NCBI GenBank assembly: GCA_051294375.1
Contig: CM119263.1
Location: 22,408,833 to 22,472,832 of the forward strand
DNA from: Paraspadella gotoi
Taxonomy: Eukaryota; Animalia; Chaetognatha
Length of the DNA: 64,000 nt
Direction: 5' to 3'
In this document: positions 8,874-51,800 of the stretch, in pieces
How positions within the stretch are numbered: the stretch's first letter is position 1
Layout: every line of letters begins with the position of its first letter
Translations under genes and position numbers: made by a program
Notes under the pieces: generated by a model
Databases searched by the model: none
What the model saw: the letters and a program-made list of their open reading frames with translations, nothing else
What the model was told of the DNA's origin: nothing

Positions 8874-9186
8874 CTTTTCTCTTCCATTCCTTTAGATTTT
8901 ATTTAATGTAATCTTTTTGAAAATTCTTTTTGTTGCCGTTTTTCCTTTGTATTATTTTGTTATGTTCTGGTTAATCGAGTGCAATTTGGGGGGGGGGCTC
9001 CTTTGCTAGTATGAAATTATATAATATGGTCCCATTATTTGTCGTCATGTTTGTATTCTCCGTAAGATGTATGATATATAACTTTAAAATCATTATAAAA
9101 GTTTTGTGGGTCTTAAATTTTTTCAGAACTTTGCTTTGTTTAGAAATTATATAAAACATACATTTGTTCCAAAAACAAAGGGGGAA

Positions 9187-10177: not shown

Positions 10178-10828
10178 CAATGACATTTTTCTTTTTATTA
10201 AATTTGTTTCCATTAGAACCATTCCATCGTATTTAAGTGATTATTTTTTAATAAAGCGTTGGTTTAACAATGCTGAGCAAATTGTTTCTTAAGTTGAATT
10301 TTGTACTAGTATTAAATTTGATCTCTTCATTACTCAAACCTTGTTAAACACTGTTGAAGTTTTTAAAGTAACCGGAATTTCATGCGGAGCTGCTAAATTG
10401 TCTTTTTAGATCTATTTGTAGTTTATTTATAGTGCCTGTGTATCTGTTAATGAAAACTGTTAATATTTAACAGCTGAAACTATAATTTACCCGAGATTTT
10501 CTAGAACTTGCCATACTCTGCAACTCCGCATGCGTACCTGAAATCTCAGCCTTTTTGTTCATTGAAAATTTTTTTATGAACTGTGGTAAAAAATTTTTCT
10601 AGTCTATGTTAAGAACTATTATTAGTTCAAACAAACTCATTGAGAAACTTTAAACTATATCATTAATCCAAATGTAAAAAACATTTTTCATTGTGTTTCA
10701 GAAGTTTGTCAGAGTCAGTTTTACCTAAGTGGTCGCACCTAAAACTCTTTTTTGAAGAATCCGTAAAGAAGCAAAATAAGAAACTGTTTCTTCGTTTTTT
10801 GGGGAGAAAGTTTATTTGGCGGAAAAAA

Positions 10829-18484: not shown

Positions 18485-18751
18485 ATAGTCATTATTTATC
18501 ATAGTTGATCTAAAACTTTCAATTTTTGTAATTTTAGTTTTCTTCGACCTAATTTGCATATTACAGTAGATTTACTCGGATGGCGCAAAGAATAGTGTAA
18601 TTTCATTGGGCTGAATGGCGCTTAAAAATCTTGTAATTATACTACTACGTCATTTAAAAACGTTCCCGCTGGGATAATGAATAAAATAGTTTTATTTTAG
18701 GTATTGCTCCTCCCCCTATTATTACGCTATTTATTAGTTTTTTCAGTCGAG

Positions 18752-20221: not shown

Positions 20222-20370
20222 AGATAAAACTCTCACTTTCCAGTTCACTTAATTCATGCCTTTTTTCTAGTCAGGATTTACACATTCAAATTCCGTCCAA
20301 ATTTTATTTACACGTTATTTTTTGTGTTGCATGCTATTTTTCAGAAAGTAATTTGTTTGCGATTATTAAT

Positions 20371-21785
20371 ATGGATGGATTCGCGTTAGGAGTAGACATT
20401 GGAACGACCAATGTAAAATGTACTGTCCTCGAAATATCTAGCAAATGTGTTGTCGCTTCAATGTGCCAAGAAACCGATGCTTATATTAATTATTTACGAC
20501 CTCATATGGAGCAGGATGTTTCAAAAATATATGCTGTCATCGACACGCTATTGCGTTTAATACCCGGGGAGGTTAAGAATAAAATAGTGACTATAGGTAA
20601 AGATGATAGAACGTATCTACATTTAAACAAGCCATAACATTTGTACTCAACCTGCAAGGTGTTTCTGGTCAGATGCATGGAATCATTCTGTGGAACGCCG
20701 CTTCTCAAAAGAATGTTGTACGTTTGGATTTTTCGGGTATTGGGGAAGACTTGTCTCATCTTATTACTTGGGAAGACAGTCGGTGTGACGAGACATTTTT
20801 GCGTTCTCTTCCCATATCACCCAGCGGCCCTATTTCAACCGGCTTTGGTTGCGCCACCCTTTTCTGGCTACAACATCATTCTTCCCTAGAACGGTACGAC
20901 CGTTGCGGAACTGTCCAGGATTTGTTCGTCTCGTGCCTTTGCGACAGTTTTCCTACAATGACGGATCATAACGCCTTTTCTTGGGGATATTTCGATCCCA
21001 TCTCGCGAGCTTGGGAAAAGAAACTTTTGAGCTCGACCGGTTTTCCCACTGGGCTTCTTCCTTGTATCATTCCAGTCGGATCCGTGGCCGGTCACCTCAA
21101 GGCCTCTTGGTTAGGCTTGCCTCTGGGAATCCCGGTTCACGCCGCCGTCGGCGATTTCCAAGCCTCCCTCTTTGCCGCCTTGAGAGATGACACGAACAAA
21201 GCTCTCCTCAACATCGGCACCTCTTCCCAGCTGGCCATTTTGAGTACCAACACAGCGGAGTCTTGTCCCACGGCCGACAGAGTTCCTTACTTGGACGGTA
21301 AAAACGCGCTGGTCGCGGCCTCCCTCAATGGGGGAAACGTTTTAACGGAGTTGGTTCGTGCACTCAAGGATTTCGCCTTGAAAATGGGAAGCGACGCGAC
21401 CGTCGACGATGTTTGGCGCGTCGTGTTGGAGGAAGGTGCTTCGGTCCCCACCACCGACCTCTTCGCCACGCCTACCCTCTTTGGCGAAAGGAGCGCTCCG
21501 TCTTCTAGAGCGTCTCTAGCCAACTTGTCTTCGAAGAATTTTACTATTGGTCATTTGACTCGCGCGTTTTGTCGCGGATTAATCGTCAATTTAGCGGGAA
21601 TGATTTCGCCTGATTTTCTGCGTGGGCGCGGAGTCGACGAAATTGTCGTCGTGGGAGGCGCGGTGTCGAAAAACCCCATTCTTTTCAGCGAAATTCAAAA
21701 CGTTTTTGGTTTAAAATTGACGCCGTTCGATGCCTTAAAGGACACTGCCTACGGTGCAGCCTTGTTTGCTGTTACTAAAATTTAG
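20371..21785 (+). CDS. SHPK: Sedoheptulokinase, FGGY kinase family (exons 20371-20596, 20659-21785)
   Basis: LGVDIGTTNVK, IGVSGQMHG across a 62-nt intron, LITWEDSRC, TGFGCATLFWL, GDFQAS, LNIGTSSQL, AASLNGGN, GER. Confidence 0.92.
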
Positions 21786-21885
21786 CATTTCATCGTTTTG
21801 ATTTTTCTATTTTATTTTTAGAATTTATTGACTATTGCATTGGTCTTAACTTGATTAGAAAGAGGAACAACGACAGTAAATAAAA

Positions 21886-24546
21886 ATGTCCTACTCTTTG
21901 AGAAGCAAAGGTGAGCACAAAAAGGAGGATGAGTTAGAATCAAGGGGTAAAGTATGGAGTCCCATAAAAGAACACATTACATCACTTCGTCTTCTTCAAG
22001 GTCGGGCTCCGATGACGCATACGCCGCCAGTGGCGGAAAAGACGAGGCGGAAGTCCAGTCGTCGATTACTTCAGTCGGAGGAAACGCCTTCGGTGGAAAC
22101 ACCCTCGGGAGCTTCGGACTCGGAAGAACACAGCAGCCAGCTCTTATCGCCGAGCGGAGAGGCGACTTTGACGGCTTTCATCGAAGAATCATGGAAAAGC
22201 GGAGTGGCGGATCTTATCAAAGAAGCCGAAGATGAAATGGAAGAAAATCTTATTCCTCTCGGCGACGAGACGACCGTGAAGACTCCAGATGCCGAAGCGG
22301 TAAATGATCCGGTGGTGGAAGATGAAAAGGGAGAAACAACCGCGAGACTGGAAGTCATTGTTCTTGACTCTGAAGATGAAGTAAATATTAAAGACGATGA
22401 AAAACACAGGCCAACGGAGAAAAGCCCAAGCAAAACAAATAACAGCCCGAGGAAATCAGATATTGTGGAATATGAGATTCCCTCCAGTCCGGATGTCATT
22501 GAAGAAAAATCTCCACCATCGGATATTGACGTTGACATGGGCGAAGACGTTGAACCACTTTATGATACATTAGCAAGTTGCGATTCCGTTCAGCCCGTTC
22601 CTAATCCGACTTTGTCTCTAAACCCAGAAGGGGACAATGAATTACCCGTCACTAAGCCAATAATAGCGGATTCTTCCGCCATGGGGATAATAAATGATTA
22701 TGGAGCAGAAAATGAGATCGACTCGTCTATTTCCAAGGATTCCCAGATTGTTTCAGAAAAAGACGAAAATCTCAACTTGTGGCACAAAATGAACGAACCG
22801 GGTCTCACCAAAGTTCCCATCGATCCTTCTGCAACTGGTAAAATCAACGAGAAAGAGTTAAGAGCGACGAACTACAACGAGAGTTTATGTCCTACAGATA
22901 TGGATGTCGGCGATGAAGAAGCGGAAGCGCAGAGACTTGCAGACCTATTAAAGGACCCCGAAGAAGCCGCCCTGGAGAGCCTCGTTTTCGGCGACGACGG
23001 CGAGATCCTCGACGAGTTTGAGAAGAAAGAGCCTTCATTAAAACAGATATCCGGCGACGACATGGACCAAGAGCCCGCTGCGGCTTGGCTCGACGAGGAC
23101 GACGAAGAAGCAGAGATTTCCGCCAAAGATCCTCGCCATCGAAAGTGTTTTCGCCGGAAAGGCGGCGACCCTAACGCCGTTGTCAAGGGGCCCGCCTTGA
23201 AGAAGAAGTTAAAGCGAGAATTCGAGAAGGTCATGGGCGAAGCTCCGTCGTGGGCGCAACCTTCAAAGAGGAATAAGACGGATCCGGACTCTGACGACGA
23301 GGCGTCGAATCTCGCCATGCGCGCCGGAAGTTTCGTCAAAACCACCAAGCCTAAGAGTCTTTCCTTCGCCCAGGGATTGCTGGACTTTAAAAAGTGTCGG
23401 CGGGTCAATTCTCAGCAACCTGGAAGGAAAATTAAACGGATTCAATTTCATCCAACATCGCAGGTGAATAGAATTGCCGGAAACTTAGTTTTACGTATGA
23501 ACAAATGTGACAGGAAGAAGAACATCCTTCAGTTAGATTTAATTTCCTTTTTTTGCGTATTATTATAATTTGATTTAAAAACGTTTAAAAAAAACTTTTT
23601 TAGGTGATGATGTCAGCTGGCTTGGACCAGATTCTTCGGCTCTACCAAATTGACGGCGTTGATAATCCTTTGATTCAATCCGTGGCTTTCGAAAAGTTTT
23701 CCATTCACTCGGCGGCGTTTACCGTCGACGGTTCTAGCGTTGTTCTCACCTGCAACAAGCCGTGGTTCAAGATTTATGACCTGATTGGCGGAAATACGAC
23801 TCACGTACCGGTCCTAAAAAGTGAGAAAGTTCTTTGACCATATTGTATTTCGTTAAACTCACTCTAATCTCGTCATTCGTTTTTTAGAACAATTATCACT
23901 GAAAAAGTTTCGGTTAACGCCGGACGGAAAATCTGCTGCGTTCTTAGCGCCCTACGGTTACGTCCACGTCATGGACCTTTCCTCCAAAGAAATTAGCTCT
24001 TCGGTCAAAATGAACGGCGCCGTCAAATCTGTTTCTTTCATCCAACGGTCCGGCCTTCCTCGCTTACTGACCCACGGCGAGGGCGGCGACGTTTACGTCT
24101 GGGACGTGCGAAACACGTCCGCCTGCCTTCACCGCTTCGCCGACGACGGCTGCAACGAAGGCAGCGCCGTCGGTGTCTCTTGCGACTCCTCGTTGATCGC
24201 CTGCGGTTCGGCTAACGGCATACTCAACGTTTACGACGCCGCCGCAGCGCTGTCCCAACGATACCCGACGCCGAAGAAGACTTTCAAAAATCTCCTGACC
24301 ACAATTCACGACATCAAATTCAATCATTCGGGGGAGATCATGTGTTTCGCCAGCGGCGAAGGGGCGGGTTCCGTCCGCCTCGCCCACGTGCCGACTCTTA
24401 ATGTGTTCGCCAACTTTCCCCCGGTGGGACTCGTAATGGGGAATCCGCGCGACGTGGACTTTTCTCCGCACAGCGGATACTTTGCCGTCGCTGACAGCAA
24501 AGATAAGATTCACCTCAATCGGCTGAATTATTATGACAACTTTTAG
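21886..24546 (+). CDS. UTP18: U3 snoRNP WD40 protein UTP18 with a long acidic N-terminal extension (exons 21886-23463, 23604-23820, 23888-24546; ~817 aa)
   Basis: LESLVFG, AAWLDEDDEE, PSWA, IQFHP, AGLDQILRLYQIDG, HRFADDGC and VFANFP motifs. Junctions keep frame. Confidence 0.9.
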
Positions 24547-24743
24547 GGAGATTTATTTTGGATGTTCGATCCAGTGAAAGAAAAAATAACTTTGTTTTGG
24601 CAATCGAGTTACTTTCTAATTAATGTTAAAGTACTACGTTTTCTAGTGAATTTATTATTTTATAATTACTTAATGTTGTTGTTTTCAGATGGCCAACCCA
24701 AGAAATACTCTTTGATCATTGTAATAAAAATGAACGTCAAAAA

Positions 24744-26216
24744 ATGGCGTTGGGAATCGGAATTGCTCGCGGCCGACCAATTTCGAGATTGCCTCTCGGG
24801 TTTCCCTTGATAGAAGGGCGCCGCCCGTCTTCCGCCCATCTCGTCGCTGACTACAAAGAATGGTATCTACCTTTGACTCGTCGTCAGCTCATCGAGCAAC
24901 TCTTGTGGGACGATCGATTTTGTCTTTCTCGCGTCGATCGAGGCAACCTGAAATGCTTGGCCGCCGAATTGGACCTCGCCGCCTCCAACAAATATCACGA
25001 GGTTCTTCACGATCTCAAGCGCCTCTACTTGCCCGTGAATCCCGACAAGGAAGCTATTGTGTCGACCAGGGGCGGAGGAAGCGACACCGATCTGGTTGTG
25101 CTGGAAACTAGGTTCCTTACACTTTTCCGTCGGGTTTTGAAGCAAGCCAATTTTCAGCAACTTTCTCACGATGCCATGACAAAGGCCCTGAAGGAACACA
25201 ACGTTGGAGACGGTGTCATGGTGAGCATTAATCCCCACAAATATGTCACTCTGCTCTTCTGGGTACAGGGTCTTCATACGGTTAGATCTGAAGACCTAAA
25301 CTGGCTGAAATCTTTTCAAGAGCGGATTAGGACTTTGACTGGGAGGCCCACGCCCAAGGAACAAACATTTTATAGGTTAGCTTTTAAATTTGAGAGTGTA
25401 AAACTTAGTTTGAATAACTACTATAAGGTGTCTCTAGTATCTCTGTTAAAATCCCTAAAATTTCTATATAATAATTTTCATGTACGAAATGGCTTTGTTT
25501 TGGCATTTGAAGGTTAATATAATTTTATTTTATTTAATTTGTATTGTTTTTTTTTTTTCAGTCGCGTTGTCGTCGCGGTGCGAAAGAAAGGATCCAAGCA
25601 CCTCCGCCTCAAGGGCTACAAAGACGTACCAGTCAGCGGCCTGGAGCAGCTTCTTCCCGACGGAAAAGTTCGAATGGGTAGCTTCGACAGATGGGTGCTC
25701 GTCTCCATGTGCCTTCTGGGATCCGCCTCCCTGGCGGCCCGTACCTCGGCTCAGATGACCTCTATGAACATTAAGTCAGGTGCCCTCATCTCTTTGGTCG
25801 TTTCTGGGCTCATTGGCTTTAACTCTTATTTCGCCTACGGAAACCGTCGCAACTCGTACCTCCTCGAGCTCTCCGGGATGCACTATTATCGCAATTTGGC
25901 CAACAACCTGGCGCTGGTGACGATGCTCGTCGATCGCGCGCAGGATGAAATTTTCAAAGAAGCGCTCGTCGTCTACGCGCTGCTTTCGTCTGGCGATGGA
26001 GAGAGTGGCGCCTCCCTTGTCCAGCTAGAAAGGATGGTGGAGTCTTTGGCCGATTCGAAGCTCAACCAAAGCATCAAATTCGATTCGAGAGAAGCCGTTG
26101 ATTTTTTGCTTGAAAATAAACTAGTCATGCGAAGAGGACACTTGATATTTTCGAAGAACGTGGATGAAGTCGCTCAAGAATCAACTATTAAGGAGCATCG
26201 GTATTTGGACATCTGA
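24744..26216 (+). CDS. TMEM143: TMEM143 / DUF3754 family membrane protein (exons 24744-25375, 25562-26216)
   Basis: YLPVNPDKE, LKQANF, LKGYKDVPVSGLEQLLP, YYRNLANN, LVDRAQDEIFKEA and two hydrophobic segments. Confidence 0.85.
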
Positions 26217-26316
26217 CCGAAATGACTCGGTCCAATTCACCTTCGTTGAGTTTTGATATACACAGTTATACACAGTTGACATTTATTTATTACTTGTTTT
26301 TGTTTTTGATCGAATC

Positions 26317-27879
26317 ATGACAGAAGGCAATATGCATTGTGCCAAAGCTTCAAAAAGTCTCAGGAGAAATTTAGTTTCGATCAATGAACCTTTTTCCCGA
26401 TTTTACCAAACCGTTACATACACTAAACCCTGGAACTATGTCAACGGAAAGCGGTGCGACCCTATCGATAGTCCTTCCTCCTTTAAACATCATGAACCTT
26501 CGACCGGAAAGGACGTTTGTGAAATCCGCGAATCCGGAATCAAGGACGTGGACAACGCCGTCGCTTTCGCCCAGAATGCCTTTGAAACTTGGTCCCGTCT
26601 CGGCGGAATGGAGCGCGGGCGCATCCTGGTCGCGGCGGGTCAAAAGATTCGAGAGCGGGCCGAGGAGATCGCCCACGTGGAAACTGTAGATACGGGAAAG
26701 CCCATTTGGGAGTCGCGGTTCGACGTCGCCGCTGTCGCCGAAGCCTTCGAATATTACGGCGGCGTGGCTGGTTCCATTGGCGGGCGTCACTTGCAGCTTC
26801 CTGGAGACAATTTCGCATTCACTCGGCGTGAGCCCCTCGGCGTTGTCGGCGGAATCGGCGTCTGGAACTTTCCCGCCCTCACTATCGGCTGGAAGGCTGC
26901 ACCTGCTCTCGCTTGTGGTAACACTTTTGTTTATAAACCGTCTCCCTTTACTCCCATGTCCGCCTTGTTCATAGCTGAGATTCTTACGGACTGCGGTTTG
27001 CCCGATGGGGCAGTCAACGTTGTTCAGGGCCAAACGCTGGCAGGCCAACGTATGTGTAGTCACCAAGGTATCGCGAAGATATCCTTTACCGGGAGTGTGC
27101 CTACGGGAAAGAAGGTTATCGAAGCTTGTGCTGGTACAATGAAGCACATGACTATGGAATTGGGTGGCAAGAGTCCTTTAATAATCTTCGAGGACGCCGA
27201 CTTGGACAACGCCGTACGCGGCGCCCTCATCGGCAACTTTATCACCCAAGGTGCTGTCTGTTCCGCCGGTACGCGGATTTTTGTGCAAAAGAGCATTTAC
27301 GACAGATTTTTGGAGAAACTCGTAACTGCGACTAATCGAATGAAGATCGGCGACCCTATGGCCGACGACACGATGATCGGCGCCACCATCAACGAGCCTC
27401 ATGCGCGAAAAGTGCTGCGCTACATCGAGGACGCTCGCAAAGCGGGGGCTCGGATTTTGTGCGGCGGCGAACGAGTCTTGCTTCCGGCACCGCTGGACAA
27501 AGGCTGGTTTCTTTCCCCTTGCGTCTTCGACCATGTAAACGACGATGACGTCATCGTGAAGGAAGAGGTCTTCGGCTGCGCCGCGGCCGTCCTTTCCTTC
27601 GACACCGAGTCTGAGGCCCTGACGCGCGCCAACGCGACGCCTTTCGGCCTAGCGGGGGGCGTTTTTACCCGAGACGTGTCTCGGGCACACCGTGTCGTCA
27701 ATCAACTCCAAGTCGGAACGGCTTGGATAAACACCTACAACTTTTACCCGACCGAAGTTCCTTTCGGAGGATACAAACTGAGCGGCTTCGGAAGGGAGAA
27801 TGGGCTCGAAGTGTTGAGTCACTATTCCCAAATTAAAACCGTTTTTGTCGAAATGGGTGACGTCGATTTTCCGGCGTGA
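26317..27879 (+). CDS. ALDH9A1: Aldehyde dehydrogenase family 9 (TMABA/betaine-aldehyde dehydrogenase-like), intronless, 520 aa
   Basis: DTGKPIWE, TRREPLGV, WNFP, KPSPFTP, FTGSVPTG, ELGGKSP, catalytic Cys in QGAVCSAGTR, EEVFG, PFGGYKLSGFGRENG, terminal VEMGDVD. Confidence 0.93.
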   Translation: MTEGNMHCAKASKSLRRNLVSINEPFSRFYQTVTYTKPWNYVNGKRCDPIDSPSSFKHHEPSTGKDVCEIRESGIKDVDNAVAFAQNAFETWSRLGGMERGRILVAAGQKIRERAEEIAHVETVDTGKPIWESRFDVAAVAEAFEYYGGVAGSIGGRHLQLPGDNFAFTRREPLGVVGGIGVWNFPALTIGWKAAPALACGNTFVYKPSPFTPMSALFIAEILTDCGLPDGAVNVVQGQTLAGQRMCSHQGIAKISFTGSVPTGKKVIEACAGTMKHMTMELGGKSPLIIFEDADLDNAVRGALIGNFITQGAVCSAGTRIFVQKSIYDRFLEKLVTATNRMKIGDPMADDTMIGATINEPHARKVLRYIEDARKAGARILCGGERVLLPAPLDKGWFLSPCVFDHVNDDDVIVKEEVFGCAAAVLSFDTESEALTRANATPFGLAGGVFTRDVSRAHRVVNQLQVGTAWINTYNFYPTEVPFGGYKLSGFGRENGLEVLSHYSQIKTVFVEMGDVDFPA

Positions 27880-35188: not shown

Positions 35189-38100
35189 TCATGTGTTTTG
35201 AATAAAATTTTTGTCCGACTTGCAAAGGCTGCTTCTTCGCGGGGGAGGTGGTGGTTTAGATTTCAACGGCGAACCGTTTGGATGGCGCGAGGGAGATCCA
35301 GAGTGGTACGAGTCTCTTCCGGATGCGGAAACTTCTGAATGACCGGACGAGACGGACAACTGGGATTGATTGCTCAGTCTTCTGCGATCCCCGTTGTAAA
35401 TATTGCCGCGTTGAGATTCTTCCGACTCTTTTCCGGCCGATAACGATGATAACCCCCTCTCCCTCTCGACGGGTTGGTGAAGAGAGAAGGGAGAATTAAT
35501 CTCGACTCTGTTTTTTCTGATGAGACCGGGGGATCCCGTGGGAAGATAGGGGTTCGCTACGGTTTTTACAGCGTGATTCAATCGAGTTTTGCAGGAGAGG
35601 GGTCCTGGGGAGGAATAGGAGGCCCCGAGGCCAGGGTTATGGCTGGCGAATTTCTCCCCAAAGTCTCCATCCTCCTTTCCGTCCAAAAATGGATTTCGCT
35701 CTCTCAAAAACTCAGTCTGCGACGTTTTAAGTTTTCCCGCCAAACTGCTTCTTGGCTCTGGGGGAACCGCAACGGGCATGGGCGGTGGGGGAGGGGGAAG
35801 CGGCAAGTCTTGATCTGCGAGGAGTTCTTCTTCGGGTGGCGGCGGGGGCAGGTCTTCAAGAGAGAGGACCGATAAGCGATTCTCTTCCCTCCTTTCTGCC
35901 TCTCCCCGCCAATACTCCAATGGAGAAGAGGTTCTGGGCAAGGCTGATCCATCTTTACTGGCGCTGCAGTCAGAAGGCGTCGTCTCAAGCTCCCCGTGGG
36001 TCGTCGACACGTAAGCGGCCGCCCACCGAGCCTCCTCGTTAAAAACGTCCGAGACAAAAGAGATATCCTTCGATAGCGCGTTTATCTCTTCCTCTAGAAT
36101 GAGAGTATCTCGGTAACCCGAATCCACGTTGCAAGATCCGCGTTTTGCTCTTCCGAGAGACGACGACGATGATGAGTTGGATGAAGTATCCGAGTTTCTC
36201 CGTTGAAGTTCCCTTAGCTTCGCCCGTTCCTCGAAGGACGATTCGGTTTTCTCCCTCGGAGCGACCTTGGCGACGGGAACATCATCGGAAAACCCCGTCC
36301 GTGCCAATGTCCTTGTCACGCCGACAGTGAGAGGGAGTTTAGGTTTCGTACCCACGCCGCTTATGAGGGAGGAATGGGCAGGCGTGGACGAGACGTTCGG
36401 AATGCATTGGCGCGCAATCCCCGTTTCCCTTGGCGTAGAGCTTTGTTGAGGCGGAGTGGCTGTCAATCCGATAGTAGACGGGTTTGTCACAAACTTTAGC
36501 TGGGCATAAAGATTTTCGTTTGATTCTGGACAGAAGCCATCGTGGCCCGATTTTACGTCCCTCGAAAGCCCCGATGGCGGTTTCCAGGTGGGCCGACTTT
36601 TGACACCGAGGTCAGACACGTCCGCCTCGCATCCTGACGACTGAGTTAATTCCGAGTACGTGCTGCTGCCGGAATAGGTGCTGGAGCTGCACTGAGAGCT
36701 GCCGCTGAATGACGTCTTCCGGCGTCTGTTGTTGATCAACGGACTCCAGGTAGCGTAATTCATGTTGACCGGCGGCAGAGGGATTTCTGGTGGCGAGAGG
36801 GACAGCTTCGAATCACCTTCTCCGACAGAGTGAAATTTGTCGTTGTCCTGTCAAGAAATTCGTTTCATTTAATTTGTATTGCATTTAATCATTTTATGAT
36901 AATCCTTTCATTTCGTTGTGTTAATGATTAGCGAAAACGAAGTTTAAATTGTTCAACAACGATTTATTATAAATCGTTAAATAATTTAAACTTCGTTTTC
37001 GCTATGCATTTAATCAATAACCTTAGGAATTGTTTTTCATTAAAAAATCAGGTAAAAAATATTTCAAATTATTTGAATTTTAATTTGTATAAAATCAGTG
37101 CATTAATAAAAGAAATAAGCAAATATTAAAAAATAAAAATTGATAAAAATATGCTAATTAATTTGATATGTAAATTTTATTATTTGAAGTTTTGAGCGAT
37201 TGAATCATTAAGCTATTTATTGCTATTTATTCAATAAATTATTATTATTATTATTAAATCAATTAAAAAAGTAATATGAACATAGAACAAGGTAAGTAGA
37301 TAATTTTAAAAATAATGATTACTGCATTATCAAAGCTCTGCAACTATATATATGAGGTAATTTCTTACTATCCTGCATCTAAAGAAAATATTTAAAACAT
37401 TATTTAATCAATATTATAAAAAATATTTGATAAATATTAAAAAATATATTTAAGAATTTTTTTTACCAATTGCTTTATGTAATAATTAATTTATTCTTAA
37501 CCATAATTATCGTAACCTTAATTTTTACCTAAATATATAATAAAAATAATAAAAAAATTATGATATCTAAATTTCTTTATTTTTCTCCCCGAAAAATTAT
37601 CCTCTTCCATTCCGTTTCGTTCTTCTTTTTCCGTTAATTCTTTAAGAAAAACCTTGCTCGTTTTCCCATGGGCCTCCAGAGCCTATTGATCTCCAGGAAT
37701 GCCCCACAAATTGTTGTTAAAACGAAATTTTCGTTAAATCTCTTATCAAAATTCGATAATAATAATAATGACCTTCCCAAAAAGTTATTGAACATCGATT
37801 AGCCATTAGCAAGTGGTGTCAGTTAATAGTTTGATTTCAAAGTGGAGTTTATCCTTTGACATTTACTGTCCTGTGTTATTAGCAAAATTTTAATTGACCT
37901 AACTCACCAGCAACGCTTTTTCCTTATTCTTTGCTTCTTTCTCGGCGACGGTCGCTGTAAAGGCTTTAAAGTCGTCGTATAATTGCCGACCGTACTTGGC
38001 GAGTCGCAGGGCAGCCATCCACCTTCGGTACAGGCCTTCCTCCTCGCAGCAAAAATAATGCAGGGTATCGCAGTCTACTTTTTGACCTCTGGCCGAAAAA

Positions 38101-41050
38101 CGCAAGGCGAATCCGAAATCTCCGGGCGACTTCAATCTCTTTTTCCATTCGACTCCCTCGAAAATCTGAGCGCGGTCGAGCGCGGTTAGAAAGAGCAAGT
38201 CTTTGTCCGACTTTGGCTTCGTCTTAGAACAAAAGTACAAACCAGAATTTCGCAGCACGAGGTAGTTTTTTTTCCACGACTTTTTGGCGTCGGATCGAGC
38301 GTGAAAGTAGCCTTCGACGTGGGGCAATTGAAAGTCGGCCGAGGAGGAAGAGGAGAACAACTGTTGGATCAACCCTTCCTTCTCCGCTGTGTCGAATTCT
38401 TGTTTCGCTGCGGACGGGGAGAACAGATAATTCTGCGGCTGAGAGAACAAGTCGTACTTGTCCCACCTCGTTTTGAAGACAAGTCTGTTCTGAGTGTCCT
38501 TGGTCCAATGACTGATGCTCTCGCTGACGTTCCAGGAATCCTCGAGCAACTGTTCCAAGTGCGTATCGGGAAGAGACTCGACCACGCTCCAGTTGACCGA
38601 TTGCCAGCGACCGTTTTTCTGGATCAGAAGCTGCACCATCTCGGCGACGGTCATTGATTCGTGGGCGAGGATCGTTTTTGAGCTTCCATCCTCGTTGTAG
38701 ACTTTGACCAAGAACTTTCCCAAGGGCGACGTGGAGGGCGCTTCGGACGTCATGTTGCGATTGATTCGATCCGCTTCGGTGGACGTTCGACCTGTAGGAT
38801 CGACGGTCGAACGTTGACTGCCCTGAATCCCGGCGTTGTCGGAAGTCGGGGCGTCGAAGCGGAGCCCGTTGCTGAGTTCTCTGTCCATGAGTTCTGAGGT
38901 GCTAAGAAGATTGGCCATGATGGAAGTCCACTCGGACGAACCATGTAGTGGTTCTCGATGAGATTCCTCGAAATGAGCGTTGTTGTCGCCGTCCGAGTCT
39001 CCGTTTCCACTGGAGACTTTGTCCGAGTTAGAATCGGACGGTAAGGGCGGATCGCGGACTCCTTCGACGTCTTCGTCGCTGCACGAGCTGCGGCAAGAAA
39101 GGCCTTCGGGCGAGAGTCTGTCCAAGTAATCTTCCAACATTCCCGCGTGACAACTCTGCGTCATCGTCGCGCTCGACGCGGCGACCGAGGAACGGAGGAA
39201 GGGGTTCTTGAGCGGGCGATCTGTAGGGGGCGCATCCCCGTCGAGGACGAGTAGAGATCTTCGACGTTGTTGTGGCGCGAGACGTCGATTCGTCGACGGC
39301 GACGAAAAGGGGGCCAAACGGGTCTTGATCGTGTCCCGCGAAAAGGAAGTAGCCGACGGATTAACTCGATTAGTGGAGTTCAAATTTTCGGATCGCGAAG
39401 CGTCGGCGGCGTGAGTTCGAAGTTTTCCGTCGTCGTCGTAGTCGTCGTCGTTTTCGTCGGGGATTCTATCTTCGTGAGCCGGCTGTCGCGACCGGCGGCG
39501 ACTGCTGCCGCTCCCGCCTCCGCCGCTGCTCCAACCGGGAAAGTCCGGGCTGAGTGAATCCAAAGATGCTGGTCGACGAAGAGCGAAACCGACGGCCGTC
39601 CAACTCGAGGGCCGACCCTTCGCCGGAAGTTTGGGAGAAGCAGATAACGTCGATGGGAGGGAGTCGTTCGGTGGTCCGGCCAGAGATTGGCGTTTTACTT
39701 CTGTTTCGATGGCGGGAAGAGAGAGGGGGAGGGGAGAGAAAGTTATTGTACATATTTTAGTTTCAACCTTTAAATTCTTGTCAAGATTCTTTACGAATCA
39801 GCCATTAATCGCTTTATGACTTTTTTTGAGGCGGGGATCCTCGCTTCTCACGAAAAAGTCATTTAACTTTCAACCGCTGAAAATTCTTAGAAGACTCTCC
39901 CAATAAAAAAAAAATTTTCGGTAATTTGCCTGCGGGCGTTTTTTTTTTTTCCGAGAGAGAGAGAGGAGAGGGAGAGGAGAGAGAAATAAGTCGCGTTATA
40001 TTAGGTTTTCTGGCTTCCTCAATTCGCGAAGGTTTTTAACTCTTCATGCGAGATAAAAACTTCAAACTGGGCTATCATCTCAAGTTTCTGCACTAAAAAA
40101 AAAGATTTCAGCGTTCATGCTTGAGGGTTTTTTTCCTGCAGCTTTAGATGTGCAGCGTTTTTTTCTTTTTTTTTGTTTATTTTAACTTAAAAAATAACAC
40201 AGTTTTAGGTTTTCAAATGAGGAAATGTTCGTTAAAGACTTTTTCGCGATAAAACTACACGGATTTCCGTGAATTTTTTTTCTTTTCGTCCAATATGGCG
40301 ATGCTCTTTTGCTTTTATAGATCTTTCTTTTAAAGGTGACTCATGTTATTTCATCGAAACTGAGTCATACGTAACATATTTTTTTCCCTTTTAAATAGAA
40401 AAACTCTTTGATTCGCCAAATCAACATCCATTTCATCCTGCCCTACTTTAATAAAATTATAAAAAATAAAAAGGAAAAACGACAAACATACCCAAAGCGG
40501 CCGTCCGCAGGCGCGCCTCTCGAGGAGTCAGAGCCTCGACGGCTGAAACTGTTTGACCGCCGTATCGTCGTCTCGAGGCCGGAGAACTGTGGCAGGAAGT
40601 CGAGAGTAAGGATCCCGGTGTCGGGGGCTTGGAGCCGATTTTACGAAAGTCCAGTCGTTGATAAGGATTAAAGATTTTCGATGATGACGACGAGCGCGTC
40701 GAAGCGATAGACGAGTGGCTCGCGGAAGCGTTGGTCGGTTTCGACCGAGATGGGCGCGTGTAATGATTACTGGTCGTTCGTTCGGAAGAGGAGGAGGAAG
40801 AAGAGGATGACGACGATGCGTTTTGGCTCAGGATTTCGGGATGAATCACGATTTGGCTCGGTGGCTGAGGGGGAAGGGGGGCGGGAATGGAGGGAGGTAG
40901 TGGGAGGCGTCGGTGAAGGAGCGCAGGGTTGGGCGGTGGTGGATGAGAGGGGGGAGGGCCTCGGGCGGTAAGCGCGTCGCCCGATCGTGCGGACCGAGAT
41001 TGCGACGCCTTGGGCATCGTAAACACGTTTGTGTCCAATATATCCTTCAT
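35189..41050 (-). CDS. MRL-family adaptor (RAPH1/lamellipodin, APBB1IP/RIAM, MIG-10-like); exons 41050-40492, 39700-37908, 36847-35189; ~1336 aa
   Basis: RA domain (VKVYNEDGSSKT...WSVVE..P..LEQLLED) followed by a PH domain (KKSWKK..VLRNSGLYF...WMAALRLAKYGRQLYDDF). C-terminal LPPPP motifs and no SH2 domain. Phase-1 then phase-0 introns join in frame. First exon and start codon are less certain. Confidence 0.85.
36929..37004. repeat. 76-bp near-perfect inverted repeat (hairpin) in the last MRL intron
   Basis: TAGCGAAAACGAAGTTTAAATT...AATTTAAACTTCGTTTTCGCTA (22-bp perfect arms) plus an inner AACGATTTA/TAAATCGTT stem. Confidence 0.85.
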
Positions 41051-42165: not shown

Positions 42166-45100
42166 GGAAACTCGATGGGAGAGGGGGCTTAACGTTTAAC
42201 ATTTCGAAGATCCAAAAACGGGGACGAAAGGATTTGGATTCTGTTCTTTTAAAAAATTCATGAAAAGTCAAAATCGGTCACAAAAGCCTGAATGGAATCG
42301 AGATATTTCTATTTTTTCATCAGTCAAAAAAAAAATTTTTTTTAATGAAAAAAGCCCCAGAATATTTACTTTTTATTTTCGTCCCAGCCGATTTTCATCG
42401 AGATTTTTAATTTTGATGTGAACATGGAATTTGTGCGTTGGTATTTAAATCACCTCAGTGTCACCCGCGGATCGAGGACTAATGGGCAATGTTTCAAGCT
42501 TTTAAGAATATTAGAAAGCCCACCAAAACAACCCCTTCTCCTTTTGGTGTCTGCTTTTTGTTTCGATCTTACAACCACCCCCCCAACCCCCCCCCCCTTT
42601 CTTTCCCCTAACAAAAAAGGCAGGAAGGAAGCTGACGGCCGATTTGATTGATAAGGAATTCGAGCTGCTCGCCTTTTTCTCAAAATTTTCTTTTTCTTCG
42701 CCAACAAAATGTCCAAAGTTCGAGCCGGGGGCTGGGAGAGCGACTCGGAGAGAGAGTCGAGTGAGAGTGAGAGAGAGAGAGAGCGCTAGATTTTAGAAAG
42801 GGAAATGGAGAAAGATAATCGCGCCAGACAGAAAAAGAGCAAATTTCTGAAGAAAAAAAACTCACGTTTACAATCAAACCAGCATTCAATTCAATTAAGC
42901 AAATTGGTTAAAAAAAAGATTTGAAAAAAAAAAAAAACCGAAAATAGAGGGCGAAAGATAAAGCGAGTTGAGAGAGTGAGATCAGGGTCATCCGAAACTG
43001 GATCGCCGTTCGCGTACAATCCCGTTCTGTTTTTACGATACATTTTCGCCAAGAGTCAGAAACGAAAGAAAGAAAAAAAAAAAAAAGAAAGAAAGTTAAC
43101 GAATCGGTCATCGCGAGTAGATTTTTTTTTTGTTCTTTTATTCGGGGCCGACGTTTCCTGAGAAACGAAGATCGCGGTGAAGTTGGCAACTTGGCACGGG
43201 GGTCAATTTCAGAAATAGTCGATGAATTAATCATATTCGCGCATTCATTAATGTTTATCTGAGAAGCGGTGTTTCATCATTTTATTTTTATTCTTCATAG
43301 CAGTTGACTGTTTGAAAGCTTTCAATCAATCATCTTTTGACTTTTATGAAATTGTTAATAACCTAAGGATCTTTTAGAGCATTTCCGTTTTGGTTATTAC
43401 TAAATTTTTAAAAATGGTCTGACACAAATGTTGTTAAAAATCTATTCACGGTTCCCCCCCCGACTTGCTCCGCGGGGTGTGCCGCATTCGCCTCGGGTTC
43501 ACCAAAAGATTTCGTCTTTCGCGACGAACAAAACTTTAAAACAAAAAGGCATCGATTTTTTTTTTCTTTTTTTCGATCCGCGGATTTCGAAAATCGGAGG
43601 TGAGCTTTTCCGGTCGAATGCATCGTCAATGACGACGAAGATGACGTTGATGGGCCGCTGCACCTTCGTTGTACCCAAGAAAAGGAGCGGATGAGAGGGA
43701 AGTCGGAAGCGGATGGAAGAGGACGGGAAATGCCGAACACATTTTCGGAGGCGTGAACGAGTTGGTTGAGGAAGATTGAAATGTACGGAGGTGAATTTGA
43801 TTCGAGTGGGTGGCTTAGTTGCTTCACCCTGGTAGTAATAGTGGTGAATGTCTTTTTTTTCCTGTGAAAAATTCTGTTAGTTTCTTTGTCTTTCTTGATT
43901 GCAAAAATGCTATCCGATACCTTGAGACGACGTGTTGCTTGTCACTTGAGAGAGAGAGAGAGAGAGAGAGAGATCGCTGTCACTTGTTGAAGTCACGCTG
44001 AAAACGATTCGCGACTGAATTGCACGTGCGCGATTCTCTCTTGCATTAGCACTTTTTTCTTTTTGCTGCATCCCGCATGACGAGACGCGATGACCCGCGG
44101 CAGCCGCGTGAGTAAAGCGAGAGAGAGAGCAACTGCGAGAGCGAGAGAGAGAGAGAGAAAGAGCAGAAGGCGTAAGGCCTCTGCGAAACTCCTGAGATCC
44201 GTCTCCAACTTTCTCGATTCACGAATCCATCCCCCCCCTTCGGAACAGGGGGTGGAAAGTCGGGGTCGGCGTGAAGAAGAGGATGATGATCGACGTAGCG
44301 TGGCAACGGGAGGAGGAAGAGCACCGTTTTCGAAAGAGGGACTAAAATGAGTCATCCTCAGATCGTACTCGCGGGGTCTTTGTTCCTTCAAAGGTAGGGG
44401 GAAAGAGTGGGGGGGCAGAAGGCGATGCCAGCTCTCGAGTCCCGACCCTCGAGCTTTCTCCGTGGAGCAGCCTCTCTCTGTCTTTCTCTCTCATAACTCC
44501 GTCTCTATCCTCCCGTTCGTGAATTCGACGGTTATTTTTACAAGATATTACGCATTAATGATTTCGGATTATCTCTCATCGAGGACGAGGACGAAGACGA
44601 CGAGTTCAGGCCTTGCTGCTTCTCTGCCACCTGGCATCGAGGAGGAGAACCGATCACGAAATTTATTTTCCAGGGTTTGAGTTTTAACGATTTCCCGATT
44701 GGCTAATTGCTCAATTGGTGATAATAGGTTTAATTCGCTGGAAATATATGAAGAGACATTCTTTTTTTGAGACGACTATATTTCATGATCATATTTTTTT
44801 CCCTTTGTTAGAAACGTTTTTTTATTTTTAATTAAAGCATTCAGTATAAAATTAAATGTTCTTAAAAACTAAAAAAGATGATAGAAAATTAATTCTAATC
44901 TGAGACTGTTTTCCCTCGACAACCAGCACGTTTCTGTTCAAGTTAAACCGGTCTATTTATATCATCTGTTCCCATATTAAGTTATGTCTAAAAACTGCTA
45001 ATCATGATTGTCATAGCAAAATTCTTTTTGCTAATAAAAATCAACAATGTGAGAGCAAGAAAATTAAAAAAGCTTAAAGAAGAGAAAATATTTTTCAAGG

Positions 45101-46444: not shown

Positions 46445-48854
46445 TCAAGTAAGGCTGTTGTCGGGGAATTTAAAGGCGTCTGATTTGCATGCAAGCTTGC
46501 CCTGCTTGACGAGATCCGCGATGCGAAGGTGGTACATCTTGTCCTGCTGCAACATTTCTCTGTAGCGACATCTGACGTTAATATGCGCGGCCAAAAAGTA
46601 GTAGAGGTTGTAGAGAAAGACGAAACCGAAACAAAAGGCTATGAAGTAACGCTCCTGCAAGAAATAGAAGTCGGTAATGTCACTATTTCTACCCTAGAAT
46701 ATTTTTTTGTAATTCTACTTCCAAAATAAAATTAACTATATTTAACTAAACTTGATTCATTAAATCAAATCATTAATGCTTCGTTTACTTCTAACGGCAA
46801 CAACAAACTCATTTTTGAAAAAAAAATCAGTGAAAAAATCCACTTTGGTCAACAAATCCGACCTTTCGCCCTCCCCCTTCCTCAATCACCTGCAGCAGCG
46901 TGAACGGATACTTGCAGTTGGAGTAGTTCCCTCTTCCCGGCGCCAACCCTTCCGGCGGCCGGGCGCCCACGTGGAAGAAATGAGCGTACATGACTTCGGC
47001 GTTGCAAAACTCGAACCAATAGACGATTCCGTGCCAGAGGGAGATGACGCCGTTGAAGAGGATGGAGAAAAAGATGTAGTAATCGAGGCGCGTGAAGTAG
47101 GAGACTCGCGGGAGATTCTCCCCGATGTAGAACTTGTAGGAGACCGAGGTCAACATCAGCAGGTAGGAGAGACGCAGCCGACGTTCGTAGCCGGATTCCG
47201 GAGGGTAAGGTCGATAGTCCGGCGGATTGTTCCTCACCGCGAACGAGGTGAAGGTCATGAAGATTATGAGCAGGAGGCAAAAGTAGGCGTGCCAGTAGTA
47301 GTAGCCCAGGCGTCGCGAGACGCGGGTGGTGAAGGTAATGAAGGGCTGAGCGAAGGGAGGTTGAGTGTACCAATGGTTGATGGTGTTGAAGGATACTTCG
47401 ACGTGGTCGTGGAGGAACCACTCTTGCTCGTCGATGAAGTTGTCCCGAATGACGGCAGAGGGCAGGGAGGTATCTTCCACCAACGCCACCTCCGGCATTC
47501 TTCGTCCGCTCCCGATGGTCACGCTCAGGTCCTGCGTGTCGAAGGGAAAGTCCCAAAGCTCCAGCGTTTCGCTCCAGACGGAGTGAATGATCCGCTGCTC
47601 GTGGACGTAGCGCTCCCCCTGGGGACTCGTCCACACTTCGTACCACTGCTTGATCTTGGGGGCGCCCCAGGTGTTCTCGAGGAAGAGCTGGGGATTCCAG
47701 AGACCAGCGAAATACTCCTGATCGATGGCGCCGGTTTCGATGAGCGGAAGTTCGTCGAGCGCCTTCTCGCGCCACTTGGCCCCAACGTAGACGTCGCAGG
47801 TGTATTTCTCCTTGGCCGTCTGGATCTCGCCCATCTTGAGGAAGCCGACGCGAAGGAGAACCTCCACGCCCTCTCGTTCCCCGACGTCCGTGCTCATCGT
47901 CAGCTGGTAATCCTTGGGCCCGGGCTTGGGACGCGGCGGGGCGAGCGACTTGAGCAAGGTGGGCTCCTCCAGCTCCTCGTTGATCGTCTTGGCCTCCTTC
48001 AGCGTGGATTTGAGATTGGCGAAGAGGTTGAAGACGTCCTCGATCCGTTGGGCCGGTTGCCCGCGGAGCATTTGAGAGATGGCGGAGCGATCGAGGGAAT
48101 CGTCGCCGGAGGCTGGGATCGGGGGAAAAATCATTGCATTCTTCTTTTAGTTAAAATATCATTGTGTTAAGAATTTCTTTTCGTTGCGTTTATAGATGAG
48201 AGAAAACAAAGTTTATTTGCTTACAAAAACAAAAACGTAATGATGAAGACTCGAAAAAACTAGAGTCGAAACATGTCCGTTTTCTGGAATAAAAACCGTT
48301 ATATGATATAAACTTTGTTTTCTCTTGGTTAAAATATCTAATATAACAATATAGACCATAGTTTATTCAAAATTAACATAATCATCATTATTTTTTATCA
48401 CTGGGAAGTAAACCAAACAGATTACAGTATTTTATCCTTGCGTTCAGTATTATGCATTAAAATCGATATAACATTCATTACTAACTGAGAAAACTTTGTA
48501 TACCAGTTATATTAATTTGAAAGACAGATATGTAAAGTAATATTTTATTCGTGTTTTTACAATTTCAGATTCTCTAGTCAGCTTATCTTCCTGATTAGTC
48601 TTCGGTTTTTGAGTAAAAACCACATGTAACGAGAACTATTTCACTATTAATTTCATTAACTAGATCATGATAAAAATCCCACCTTGTTTTTCATCGCCAT
48701 ATCCTTTGTCTGTATCTTCAACTTCGTCTTCTTCCAAGTCTTCGTCGTTCGCCTCGAAGGAAGTCTCGGAGATGGTCGTGGCTTCCGAGAGACCCGACCT
48801 TGCCGATGTTCTGGATTGGACCGAGGCCGGTCGAGATCCCTCGCTCGTTGCCAT
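46445..48854 (-). CDS. Pentameric ligand-gated ion channel subunit, Cys-less (Pro-loop) type; exons 48854-48683, 48112-46890, 46654-46445; ~534 aa
   Basis: Loop-A-like WNPQLFLEN, Pro-loop LELWDFPFDTQDL without flanking Cys, pre-M1 RR, four TM segments, M2-M3 LPRVSYFTRLDYY. GT-AG junctions in frame and a GCCATGG start. Confidence 0.88.
48167..48325 (+). repeat. Hammerhead-bearing short repeat in intron 1 of the channel gene (motif at 48240-48280, C3-to-A)
   Basis: aUGAUGA-a-GACUC-gaaaaaacua-GAGUC-GAAAC-AU-GUC-cgu. Flanks (TTTCTTTTCGTTGCGTTTATAGAT, AGAAAACAAAGTTTATTTG) are shared with the 31660-31833 copy. Confidence 0.7.
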
Positions 48855-51800
48855 GGCGACTGGTTAATAAGGCGCGTATAAGATACGCGGCGCTTTACAA
48901 CAAATCTTGACTCCCGCTTCGACGAGCGACGCCGTTCTCGTCGACGCGGCGACGATCAGCTCGAGGATTCGAAGCGACGGAGCATTCGGAGCATCACTCG
49001 ATCGCTCCGACGATCTCGAGAATCGCGAGTGTCTATTGGAGGATCGAAATATTCGAACGAAAGAAATACTGAGCGTTTCTCTCTCTTCTCTCTCTCTCTT
49101 CTCTTCTCTCGCCCCCTCCTCTCTCCACAATTTTTTTAATTTATAATTCTCTGACGTTTTCTCCCTCTCTCCACCTCCTCCTCCTCATCCTCCTCCCACC
49201 CATCCGACTGATCCGACTGCTTTCGTTCGATATCGACCTTCGTTGATGCAGTGGATTATTGGCTTTTGCTTTGTCTTTGGTGGTTGTCGTTGTTGTCGTT
49301 GTTGTCGTTGTTGTCGAGGTCTTCATCGTCGACCTCATGAGAGCAATTTTATTAATTTTTTTCCCTATAGGATCAAATAAGTAGAAGTGATGAAAAAAAA
49401 TATCGATGTAGTAGGAAAAAAAACTTCTTTTTTTTTTTTGAGAATGGCTTGTCGATCTAATGAACGAATGAAAACATGAAAGAAAAAAAGAAGAAAAAAT
49501 TGAAAAAATGAATTTAGCTCACGAGAAAATTATATATAAATAAATATAAATATATATATATATATCTAAATATATATATATAAAACTTTGAAGCCGTAGT
49601 GCAAGGAACACTGTGCCTTTTACTTTGAGTTGTTCGGCCGATGTCTATATTTTCCTCTTTGGTAGCTTTTCTTTTTTTATCTTAATCTAATGATATATAT
49701 ATATATCACGGTCAGGGGTTACTAACTTACAAACGATAGTAGCATAGTACAGTAAAAATTTAAAAAAATTCGGTCATTCTTAATCAGAGCAAGCACAAGG
49801 AGAGTGTGTGTACACGTACAGGAACACGTAAAGGAACACCATCGACCTATAATAAAACATTCGTAATATATTATCGCGCCAAACTCGAGGCGCTCAAAGC
49901 CTGCTTCTTTTTCTGAGCCTCTTCTAAGCCACAAAAAAAAAAAAAAAAAGAAATCTCGCGCCCAATAAATTCTTTTTTTGTGGCTCAGGTTTTCTCGCTT
50001 GACAAATCGACTGGAAAGCAGTCGGTGACTCCGCCCATGCCGCTGCCGACGCCGCCGCCGCCGCCGCCGACGCCGCCGCCGGCTCGCTTCTGGCGCCATC
50101 GCCGCTCCCGCCACCGTCTGCGTTGGCAATCAACACTCAACAGTCCTGGTTTTTCCCATTCAATCCTGACTCAACAAATGCGCTTCAACCTCTCTTTGGG
50201 CCTTCTCTTTTCTTTTCTTTTCTTTTCTTTTCTTTTCTTTTCTTATTCTTTCCTTTCTTTTTTTTCTTTTCTATTCTTGTCTTTTCTTGTCTTTTCTTTT
50301 CTTTTATCTTCTTTTAACATGAAATTGGTACAACCAACATATTACTTTTCTTTTTTAAATTTTTATTTACAATTATTTTTTTCAAATAATTTATTTCCTT
50401 TTCTCACTTTCTTTTTGTTACTATTTATCTCCTTCCCTTTCTTATCTTTTTCTATTTTTTTCATTTATTATTCTTGTTACATACTTATTTTCCTCTTTAT
50501 CTTCTTATAATTTTTCTTTTTTTCTTTTATTCATAGCCATATATAGGTTTTTATATCTTACCGTTTTTTTTTCCAGTTTTTCCTTTTTTTCTCTTCTACG
50601 AGAATCTTTTTTCTTATTTTTTTCTTCTTTTTTTCTTTTTTTCTTTTTTCTTTTTTTTTTATCTTTTTTCTTCTTTTTTTTTCTTTTTCCCTCTTTTTTC
50701 CCCCCTTTTTCTTCTTTTTTTTCTCGACATTCCCCTTTTTCCCCTCACTCGGTCTCAAATCCTCGATTCAATTCCCTTTGCGTTCATTCAGCGCGAAGAC
50801 TGAATTTTCGCGCTGCGTCTGCGGCGTCAAAGCTGCAGCATGTTGCAGCAACAAGACTTAATAGCTCGGAAAAGGAGCAACTCCTTGCTTGAAAATTATA
50901 TATTTGATGAAGATACGTATAGTCGTTTACAATTCCTTAATATTACCAGGTATAAAATAATGATATACGATATCTATCATTCGAAATTCCTCGGTGATAC
51001 TAAGCTGGTGGGAATAACTTCGAATCTTAATATCACAGAGAAAATTAGTTTAGAAGAAAAAACAAACGCTTTGTCTCTTTTCATGTCGAGTATTCTCGGC
51101 ACACAATCGAGAAGCCTTTAAACCATCGCGCTTCCTCGATAGATTTAGTCGGCGCCGTTTCAGCGCGTCACCTTTCTCGGTCGTTCCAACCAAAACAATC
51201 GCGACAAATTGATGTTCTAACGTTGGACACGACGACGACAACGACGACGACGAAGACGACGCCCGCGAGGACGAAAACCCTTTGGGGATCGAGTCTCTCA
51301 GCTCTCGTCTTTCCTCTGCACTCTTGACCTTTTGACCTTTCTTCGCACTCCTTCTCACTCCCGTCATCAGACTCATCACTCCCGAAGTTCTTAACGATTT
51401 TTTTTGAGAGACGCTTCCGGAATCCAGTTTCAAGGCTGCGCAGTTTTTAGGCTTTGCGAGATTTTTGGGAGAAATTTTAAACTTAAAAAAAAAAGAAAAT
51501 TAAAAATTATTCAGCAGAGAATTAAAACATATATCCACCTCTCCGCTCGGCGTTTTAAGACTCCTTCTTTTCTCTCCTTCCCAAGTTCCCAGTACATCAG
51601 TATTCCGCGTTCGGTCGTGTTCGCTCCCCCCCCCTTTTACACCCCCACCTCGTCGCTGCCGCCGCCGCCGCCACGCACGCCGCCGCGCCGCGCTTCGGAA
51701 GCGGCGTCGTTTCGCCCGCGCTCGCTTGCTCGCGAGAGGTTTTTTTTTTTAGTGACGCGGCGCAAGAAAACTCGCGCGACCGGAAACGGCGCCTCGGGGC

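Follow-up and report, generated by a model that had tools for sequence, protein, structure and literature searches.

The channel subunit encoded on the minus strand at 46445..48854 of the window (the whole 64,000-nucleotide stretch of Paraspadella gotoi DNA that was analyzed) belongs, judged by its sequence, to the known eukaryotic Cys-less ("Pro-loop") clade of pentameric channels (pLGICs). We propose that this clade member inserts into the membrane upside-down, leaving the sensor domain as well as the N- and C-terminus on the cytosolic side, and that it would be opened or tuned from inside the cell. We put the probability of this reading at roughly 0.7, and the inverted topology taken by itself appears highly probable from the comparisons presented below, which are strong though indirect. 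The case for inversion is stronger at the level of the family than from the single gene.

Gene structure and domain architecture

Enumeration of the GT-AG combinations followed by the use of a transcript contig gave a gene of three exons on the minus strand with a product of 534 aa; before the transcript evidence this model was one among many open GT-AG combinations. Exon 1 (48683..48854) carries the ATG and an acidic, Ser/Thr-rich N-terminus without hydrophobic leader, exon 2 (46890..48112) the N-terminal helices, the beta-sandwich, M1-M3 and most of the M3-M4 loop, and exon 3 (46445..46654) M4 (46648-46583), a basic helical tail (46582-46448) and the stop codon. Intron 1 (48113..48682, 570 nt) and intron 2 (46655..46889, 235 nt) are both GT-AG on the coding strand and both correspond to joints of a 1752-nt contig which spans 48878-46322 and skips the two introns precisely (blocks 48878-48683, 48112-46889 and 46653-46322; the sequencing run was labelled RNA by guess, the contig itself is spliced). 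The contig starts 24 nt 5′ of the ATG with no loose end. This 5′ UTR (48855..48878) contains an in-frame TAA four codons upstream of the ATG (48866-48864) and an unspliced AG (48861-48860), which the first-pass annotation had flagged as the possible border of an upstream signal-peptide exon. Since the contig reads unspliced through the AG to the in-frame TAA, such an exon is excluded for the assembled isoform. The transcript support consists of one contig from one study, with reads examined as far as position 52000, and rare variants drop out of contigs; two further sequencing runs contained short stretches of relatives only. The gene is transcribed and conserved in orthologues. A gene with RA and PH domains, an architecture of the animal type, is also present within the window; taken with the invertebrate species among the named relatives it points to a probable invertebrate host.

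The protein has the architecture of the pLGIC (Pro-loop) superfamily, that is a beta-sandwich and four transmembrane helices. Exon 2 matches Pfam Neur_chan_LBD (PF02931) with an E value of 8.8e-7, and the best solved-structure match by sequence in the PDB is ELIC (E 5e-13). The AlphaFold2 model of the orthologue P0001 (77% identical; 87-sequence alignment; pLDDT 84) begins with two helices, which are followed by the beta-sandwich and the four membrane helices, M4 running unbroken into a long tail helix. Foldseek matched it to glycine, GABA-A and ELIC structures with E about 1e-19, a monomer model being silent on orientation. The signature residues of the superfamily, as listed in Table 1 of the accessible text of PMC4795631, are present: F246, P247 and D249 of the F/YPxD loop, R324 before M1, W289 in beta-9 and P392 between M2 and M3. 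By homology alone, the subunit would be expected to assemble into pentamers and to conduct ions.

Both Cys-loop cysteines are absent from the Pro-loop (residues 237-253, 47526..47576), as had been noticed in the first-pass annotation together with the fold. A Cys-x13-Cys disulfide loop is found in 0/77 Cys-less sequences, this protein included, compared with 30/30 nicotinic controls. The second disulfide (loop C), a mark of the secondarily Cys-less members of the anionic clade (nematode lgc-34 type, grouping with GABA/glycine/GluCl receptors), is absent as well, there being a single, unpaired Cys across the whole beta-sandwich (residues 140-327, 47304..47867); the tree described below covers eukaryotic Cys-less, bacterial and nicotinic sequences. 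In loop B (positions 259-262) neither the query nor the residues common in the clade include an aromatic one, so that the loop B aromatic of the box for amine transmitters is lacking.

Ahead of beta-1 there are 139 hydrophilic residues with a best 9-residue Kyte-Doolittle mean of 1.04, and residues 1-133 contain 28 D/E vs 15 K/R, in agreement with the earlier description of an acidic N-terminus without signal peptide. The beta-sandwich, predicted to be cytosolic, has no sequon. M1 (47235..47303), with three basic residues before it, is the predicted signal anchor, of the N-cytosolic type. The subfamily-specific M1-M2 loop (47178..47234) has 19 aa, compared with a family median of 8, with 4 K/R and 3 D/E. 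In the pore helix M2 (47124..47177) there is Arg at -1′, 0′ and 2′, Leu at 9′, Lys at 15′ and Phe at 16′, and M3 is positioned at 47013..47081. The M3-M4 loop (46649..47012; 43 aa, split by intron 2) contains C427 (47006-47004), C457 (46916-46914) and, in between, N453 (NYS; 46928-46926), which is the sole sequon of the 534-aa protein. This loop is predicted to lie outside, with a likely C427-C457 disulfide. The tail after M4 has 45 aa with 9 K/R and 5 D/E. The sequon-free nominally extracellular domain, the location of the only sequon and the long basic tail were therefore described correctly in the first reading of the sequence.

Family placement and marks of orientation

A family search gave 15 matches from 3215 candidates, namely 13 close orthologues (51-83% identity), one distant member and one bacterial-type protein. 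The wider search gave 1706 representatives with E values of at most 0.001, of which the best 150 were used. Named relatives among the clusters listed are Tubulanus, Rotaria, Branchiostoma, Helobdella, Opisthorchis, Echinococcus and Pinctada, thus covering a nemertean, a rotifer, a leech, flukes, tapeworms, a pearl oyster and amphioxus, a spread of species that agrees with the one given for the Cys-less clade in the available text of Jaiteh et al. (PMC4795631). In a FastTree analysis of 119 sequences the protein falls within a subclade of 62 members (support 0.986), and all 81 eukaryotic Cys-less sequences fall into one clade with weak support (0.62), apart from the 18 bacterial and 20 nicotinic sequences; the 119 consist of these three groups. 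Matches to eukaryotic clusters in the ESM Atlas at 0.87-0.90 are a lead only.

The test set was built from 163 proteins and the query. After dropping the bacterial protein, sequences shorter than 330 aa and those without Pro-loop motif, 129 were left, of which 127 could be aligned from beta-1 on and 102 were complete up to and including M4; a set of 77 was mutually less than 60% identical. The nicotinic control was seeded by a DNA pattern: from 120 of 314 matches listed, 88 had at least 420 aa, 85 were complete and 30 non-redundant. For the bacterial Cys-less control, 43 loci yielded 31 complete frames and with the seed 18 non-redundant sequences. The controls thus represent, besides the bacterial channels, only the nicotinic type of Cys-loop receptor and not the GABA/glycine type. 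A leader was scored in all sets alike by a hydropathy rule of our own, not by SignalP, as an uncharged 8-residue stretch with a mean of at least 2.3 before beta-1. Because the sequences are related and not independent, p-values overstate the case.

A signal-peptide-like leader was found in none of the 71 Cys-less relatives starting with Met, compared with 21/30 nicotinic and 18/18 bacterial sequences; a looser cut of 2.0 brought the relatives to 3/71. When only sequences with at least 40 residues before beta-1 are considered, the counts are 0/47 for the Cys-less and 20/25 for the nicotinic set. Seven of the 30 nicotinic models are without leader even at the lowest threshold, most of them being visibly truncated. 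The orthologues located on transcript-sized contigs have long and hydrophilic N-termini.

The distribution of charges is reversed with respect to the controls. More K/R follow M4 than precede it in 70/77 Cys-less sequences, but in 0/30 nicotinic and 0/18 bacterial ones. The difference in K/R between the beta-sandwich side and the other side of the membrane is positive in 77/77 Cys-less sequences (mean +7.3), whereas this is the case for 0/30 nicotinic (mean -2.5) and 4/18 bacterial controls (mean -0.8). This signal originates at the M4 flanks and, as the controls are nearly without tail, part of the contrast is tail length. The ends of the M3-M4 loop have a net charge of -1.2 in the Cys-less set vs +2.1 and +2.7 in the nicotinic and bacterial controls, respectively, and short M3-M4 loops of similar length differ from bacterial ones in their K/R fraction (0.11 vs 0.24) and D/E fraction (0.21 vs 0.11). 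The balance of the query itself (11 K/R vs 6) is weaker than that of the clade, its M3-M4 loop being neutral (4 K/R, 4 D/E) and not acidic.

Some candidate marks were discarded. The charge difference across M1 has one and the same sign in the Cys-less, nicotinic and bacterial sequences and is uninformative, and the basic residues located ahead of M1 and between M2 and M3 do not discriminate, being common to N-out bacterial channels. The first-pass annotation had also read inversion from the lengthened M1-M2 linker. Its length stands, but it is found in only 1/77 non-redundant members and is basic, its 4 K/R falling on the side predicted to be the outer one, so that we dropped it.

Sequons were counted over the beta-sandwich and the 35 residues before it. 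Here the ratio of observed to expected sequons is 0.84 for the Cys-less and 1.59 for the nicotinic sequences, and 29/77 compared with 0/30 are sequon-free. In the beta-sandwich alone the depletion is marginal (0.81, p 0.05), and since composition alone predicts about one sequon for each sequence, a single sequon-free beta-sandwich is weak evidence. The eight M3-M4 loops of at least 30 aa contain 14 sequons vs 4.6 expected, with at least one in 7/8, while the cytosolic M3-M4 loop of the nicotinic receptors is at chance (37 sequons vs 34.8 expected). The beta-sandwich of the Cys-less sequences has no conserved Cys pair.

The M3-M4 Cys pair, whose conservation had been raised as a check together with that of the NYS sequon, is kept in 13/13 orthologues, but the position of the sequon is kept in 1/13 only, and 10/13 are without any sequon in the loop. 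In another 2/13 a sequon follows M3 at a distance of about 4 residues, which is probably too near to the membrane for use. N453 itself lies 15 residues before M4, a spacing which would permit use according to the glycosylation distance rule. NYS as a conserved orientation marker was dropped. The inverted topology suggested in the first-pass annotation therefore receives its support from the leaders, charges and sequons of the clade, whereas the original arguments from NYS and the M1-M2 linker fail.

Proposed insertion and gating, and the alternatives

As a signal peptide is lacking, the stretch of 327 residues ahead of M1 would be made and folded in the cytosol. A folded N-terminal domain is described as forcing N-cytosolic insertion, and N-out anchors as having nearly always less than about 40 residues ahead, in the accessible parts of PMC6269167 and PMC8745461. 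M1 would then enter as N-cytosolic signal anchor aided by the preceding arginines, and the M1-M2 and M3-M4 loops would face the lumen or the outside, where the C427-C457 disulfide would form and glycosylation of N453 would be possible. M2-M3 and the basic tail would face the cytosol. Five subunits, same or mixed, would surround a pore lined by M2 as usual, but with the opposite direction. As to the history, the arginines ahead of M1 and within the M2-M3 loop would already have favored the cytosolic side, so that loss of the leader could have flipped the protein. Later, selection would have stripped K/R from the M3-M4 loop and added a basic tail, and glycans and disulfides would have arisen in M3-M4 where this loop expanded.

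If the inverted topology is right, it would entail gating from the cell interior, brought about by a cytosolic signal acting on the beta-sandwich. The coupling residues P247, D249 and R324 (the Pro and Asp of the Pro-loop and the pre-M1 Arg) are kept in 77/77 sequences and the beta-sandwich therefore probably still drives the gate, whereas loop B without aromatic residue argues against an amine transmitter. Acidic residues are conserved at positions 153 (in 65 of 77), 239 (68), 242 (72), 285 (55) and 288 (65), which are located in the beta1-beta2, Pro and F loops. These loops hold Ca2+ in DeCLIC and other pLGICs according to the text available of PMC9897478, and cytosolic Ca2+ bound to this acidic cluster is, by analogy, our best guess for the ligand, although a doubtful one. 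At M2 positions -1′ and 2′ the clade has mostly Asn and Gln where the query has Arg, and this might weakly hint at anion preference or at heteromeric assembly. An informative fusion to a recognised cytosolic domain was not found among 30 long relatives (one carries DUF4706), nor in the 2 matches from a search of longer proteins, where a blank is weak evidence. The consensus patterns for EF-hand and IQ motifs were absent from all 102 sequences.

In the N-terminus (48759..48833), an R-x-x-S is followed by a (Ser/Thr-x-x)8 run (residues 11-32) with Ser or Thr at every third residue over 8 positions and then by an acidic tract. The run has a p of about 0.0003 when the N-terminus is shuffled and of 0.0006 with local shuffling, and with spacings of 2, 4 and 5 the 534-aa protein has only runs of 2-3. 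Within this otherwise divergent region 7-8 repeats are kept in the six orthologues P0002-P0007, which include two near-duplicate pairs; the run is absent from P0001, P0008 and P0009-P0013 and is not clade-wide (at least 5 repeats in 1/77). Casein kinase 1 works in the cytosol. The run fits its sequential consensus pSxxS, as given in the available text of PMC7012598, and is predicted to resemble a casein kinase 1-type phosphorylation relay which could tune the channel. General enrichment of kinase motifs across the N-termini is weak (1.2-1.3).

Could the protein instead be N-out in the normal way? Its beta-sandwich would have to be exported without cleavable signal, by a post-translational flip or an internal signal, and the channel would, as ELIC or GLIC do, answer pH, a small molecule or a similar cue from outside. 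The solved relatives are without exception N-out, the accessible text of PMC4795631 and PMC9874803 treats the clade as N-out, the coupling residues are fully retained and the M1-M2 loop of the query is basic. Nevertheless we consider this unlikely, as 327 residues would need to be translocated without signal, far from the short stretches ahead of N-out anchors, and the reversed charges of the M3-M4 loop and tail, the sequon-rich long M3-M4 loops and the Ser/Thr relay would be left unaccounted for. An ordinary channel whose upstream signal-peptide exon was missed, here as well as in the models of the relatives, is very improbable. The AG just 5′ of the ATG, the single contig from one study, which leaves room for rarer isoforms, and the leaderless control models speak in its favor, but the contig passes this AG, the orthologues on transcript-sized contigs begin with long hydrophilic N-termini, leaders are absent from the relatives with long N-termini and frequent in the controls, and the reversed loop charges are independent of the 5′ end.

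The channel might also be inverted and not ligand-gated, with the beta-sandwich serving as a scaffold or tether and the pore either being opened by force, lipids or phosphorylation or being located in an internal membrane and not at the surface. The clade-wide absence of a loop B aromatic would suit this, as would the phosphorylation-like relay and the basic tail, which fit control by kinases or lipids, and planarian Cys-less homologues are reported from mechanosensory neurons, with RNAi leading to sensory loss (accessible text of PMC9874803, citing Ross et al. 2018). The residues that couple the domains and the acidic cluster at the interface are, however, strongly conserved, as if the beta-sandwich drives gating, and we see little chance for this explanation. 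The inverted channel opened or tuned by a cytosolic signal is therefore our preferred reading.

Relation to known channels and meaning

With the eukaryotic Cys-less clade of Jaiteh et al. (PMC4795631, available text) the protein shares the F/YPxD loop without Cys, the pre-M1 Arg and the M2-M3 Pro. Its subfamily adds to the features of the rest of the clade the 19-aa M1-M2 loop, the Cys-paired M3-M4 loop, the Arg at 2′ and the N-terminal Ser/Thr relay. According to the accessible text of PMC9874803 the clade includes the schistosome Cys-less channels and planarian gabrg1/gabrg2. ELIC and the bacterial Cys-less pLGICs have the same fold (TM-score 0.72 over the target), and the Cys-loop cysteines are absent from both; the M3-M4 loop is short in the bacterial channels and in most of the eukaryotic clade. 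The bacterial controls have, however, a leader in 18/18, a basic M3-M4 loop and nearly no tail, which is reversed in the eukaryotic Cys-less clade, and the loop-B aromatic of ELIC has no counterpart in the query. The Cys-loop receptors (nicotinic, GABA-A, glycine) have the beta-sandwich and four-helix fold in common with the query, but the nicotinic controls differ from it in that they have the disulfide (30/30), leaders and glycans on the N-domain, with an M3-M4 loop that is long and basic and a tail that is short. The acidic beta1-beta2 and loop F residues of the clade correspond to the Ca2+ interface of DeCLIC (PMC9897478, available text), a likeness by loop location only; DeCLIC is, unlike the query, a bacterial N-out channel inhibited by outside Ca2+.

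In the literature searched, which mostly did not extend to subscription papers, we found no proposal of an inverted or leaderless pLGIC clade. Judging from the text available, Jaiteh et al. (PMC4795631) removed the termini before their analysis, assumed an N-out orientation and stated that the biology "is not documented", PMC9874803 calls the beta-sheet domain extracellular, PMC13174522 ran a signal-peptide prediction and gives no result for the Cys-less clade, and PMC11085791 and bioRxiv 10.1101/2025.04.02.646353 (the latter with 41 channels tested against 18 outside ligands) simply list the clade or use it as root. The clade is already known; new here is the Ser/Thr run of the N-terminus.

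Possibly the eukaryotic Cys-less clade, which ranges from protists to flatworms, molluscs and amphioxus, is inverted as a whole and forms a flipped branch of the neurotransmitter-receptor superfamily. Loss of the leader would then have given cytosolic sensors and second-messenger-gated pentameric channels, with Ca2+ as lead candidate and a casein kinase 1-type relay tuning the subfamily of the query. We offer this generalization tentatively. The pLGICs that we found described all sense from outside, and a natural inverted branch would, if true, be a well-studied receptor fold working in reverse, with a sensor domain that works without glycans or disulfides. It would also explain the orphan status of these channels, because transmitters applied to the bath would never reach the site. 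The clade includes channels of parasitic flatworms which have been proposed as drug targets (PMC9874803, accessible text), and their orientation decides how a screen should be designed.

Neighbouring genes in the window

Downstream of the channel gene, the nearest recognisable gene encodes a protein with RA plus PH domains and proline-rich stretches (35189–39797, minus strand), which we take to be of the MRL/Grb7 type. A compact and intron-poor run of genes is found on the plus strand at 18701–27879, comprising an unnamed helical protein, an FGGY sugar kinase, a WD40 protein, a DUF3754 protein and an aldehyde dehydrogenase (540 aa, in one frame). Three similar RRM-domain genes, presumably hnRNP D/squid-like, lie in tandem at 8022–11972 (plus strand). 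The first of them (8022–8873) is a single open frame with two RRMs, and each of the other two is apparently broken by one intron at a similar place. Possibly these genes are tandem duplicates with intron loss.

Frames and contigs around the channel gene

Exon 2 of the channel gene is overlapped by two long stop-free frames, one of 468 aa on the plus strand (46764–48170) and one of 422 aa on the minus strand (46882–48150), and GC-rich codon usage is the likeliest cause of both. In the read run X1 two short contigs of low depth match exactly or nearly exactly at 43579–44011 (minus strand), about 2.3 kb downstream of the end of the channel transcript; they may represent a minor transcript or DNA.

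Channel relatives and M2 position 15′

Two relatives from the family search, P0016 and P0017, are each a single predicted protein containing two channel-like stretches, and these are likely tandem genes joined by gene prediction.

In the family alignment, position 15′ of the pore helix M2 (47124–47177) is Lys or Arg in 76 of the 77 Cys-less members; in the bacterial Cys-less set it is Arg in 16 of 18 and none in 2. A possible function of this conserved basic residue is to bind lipid head groups.
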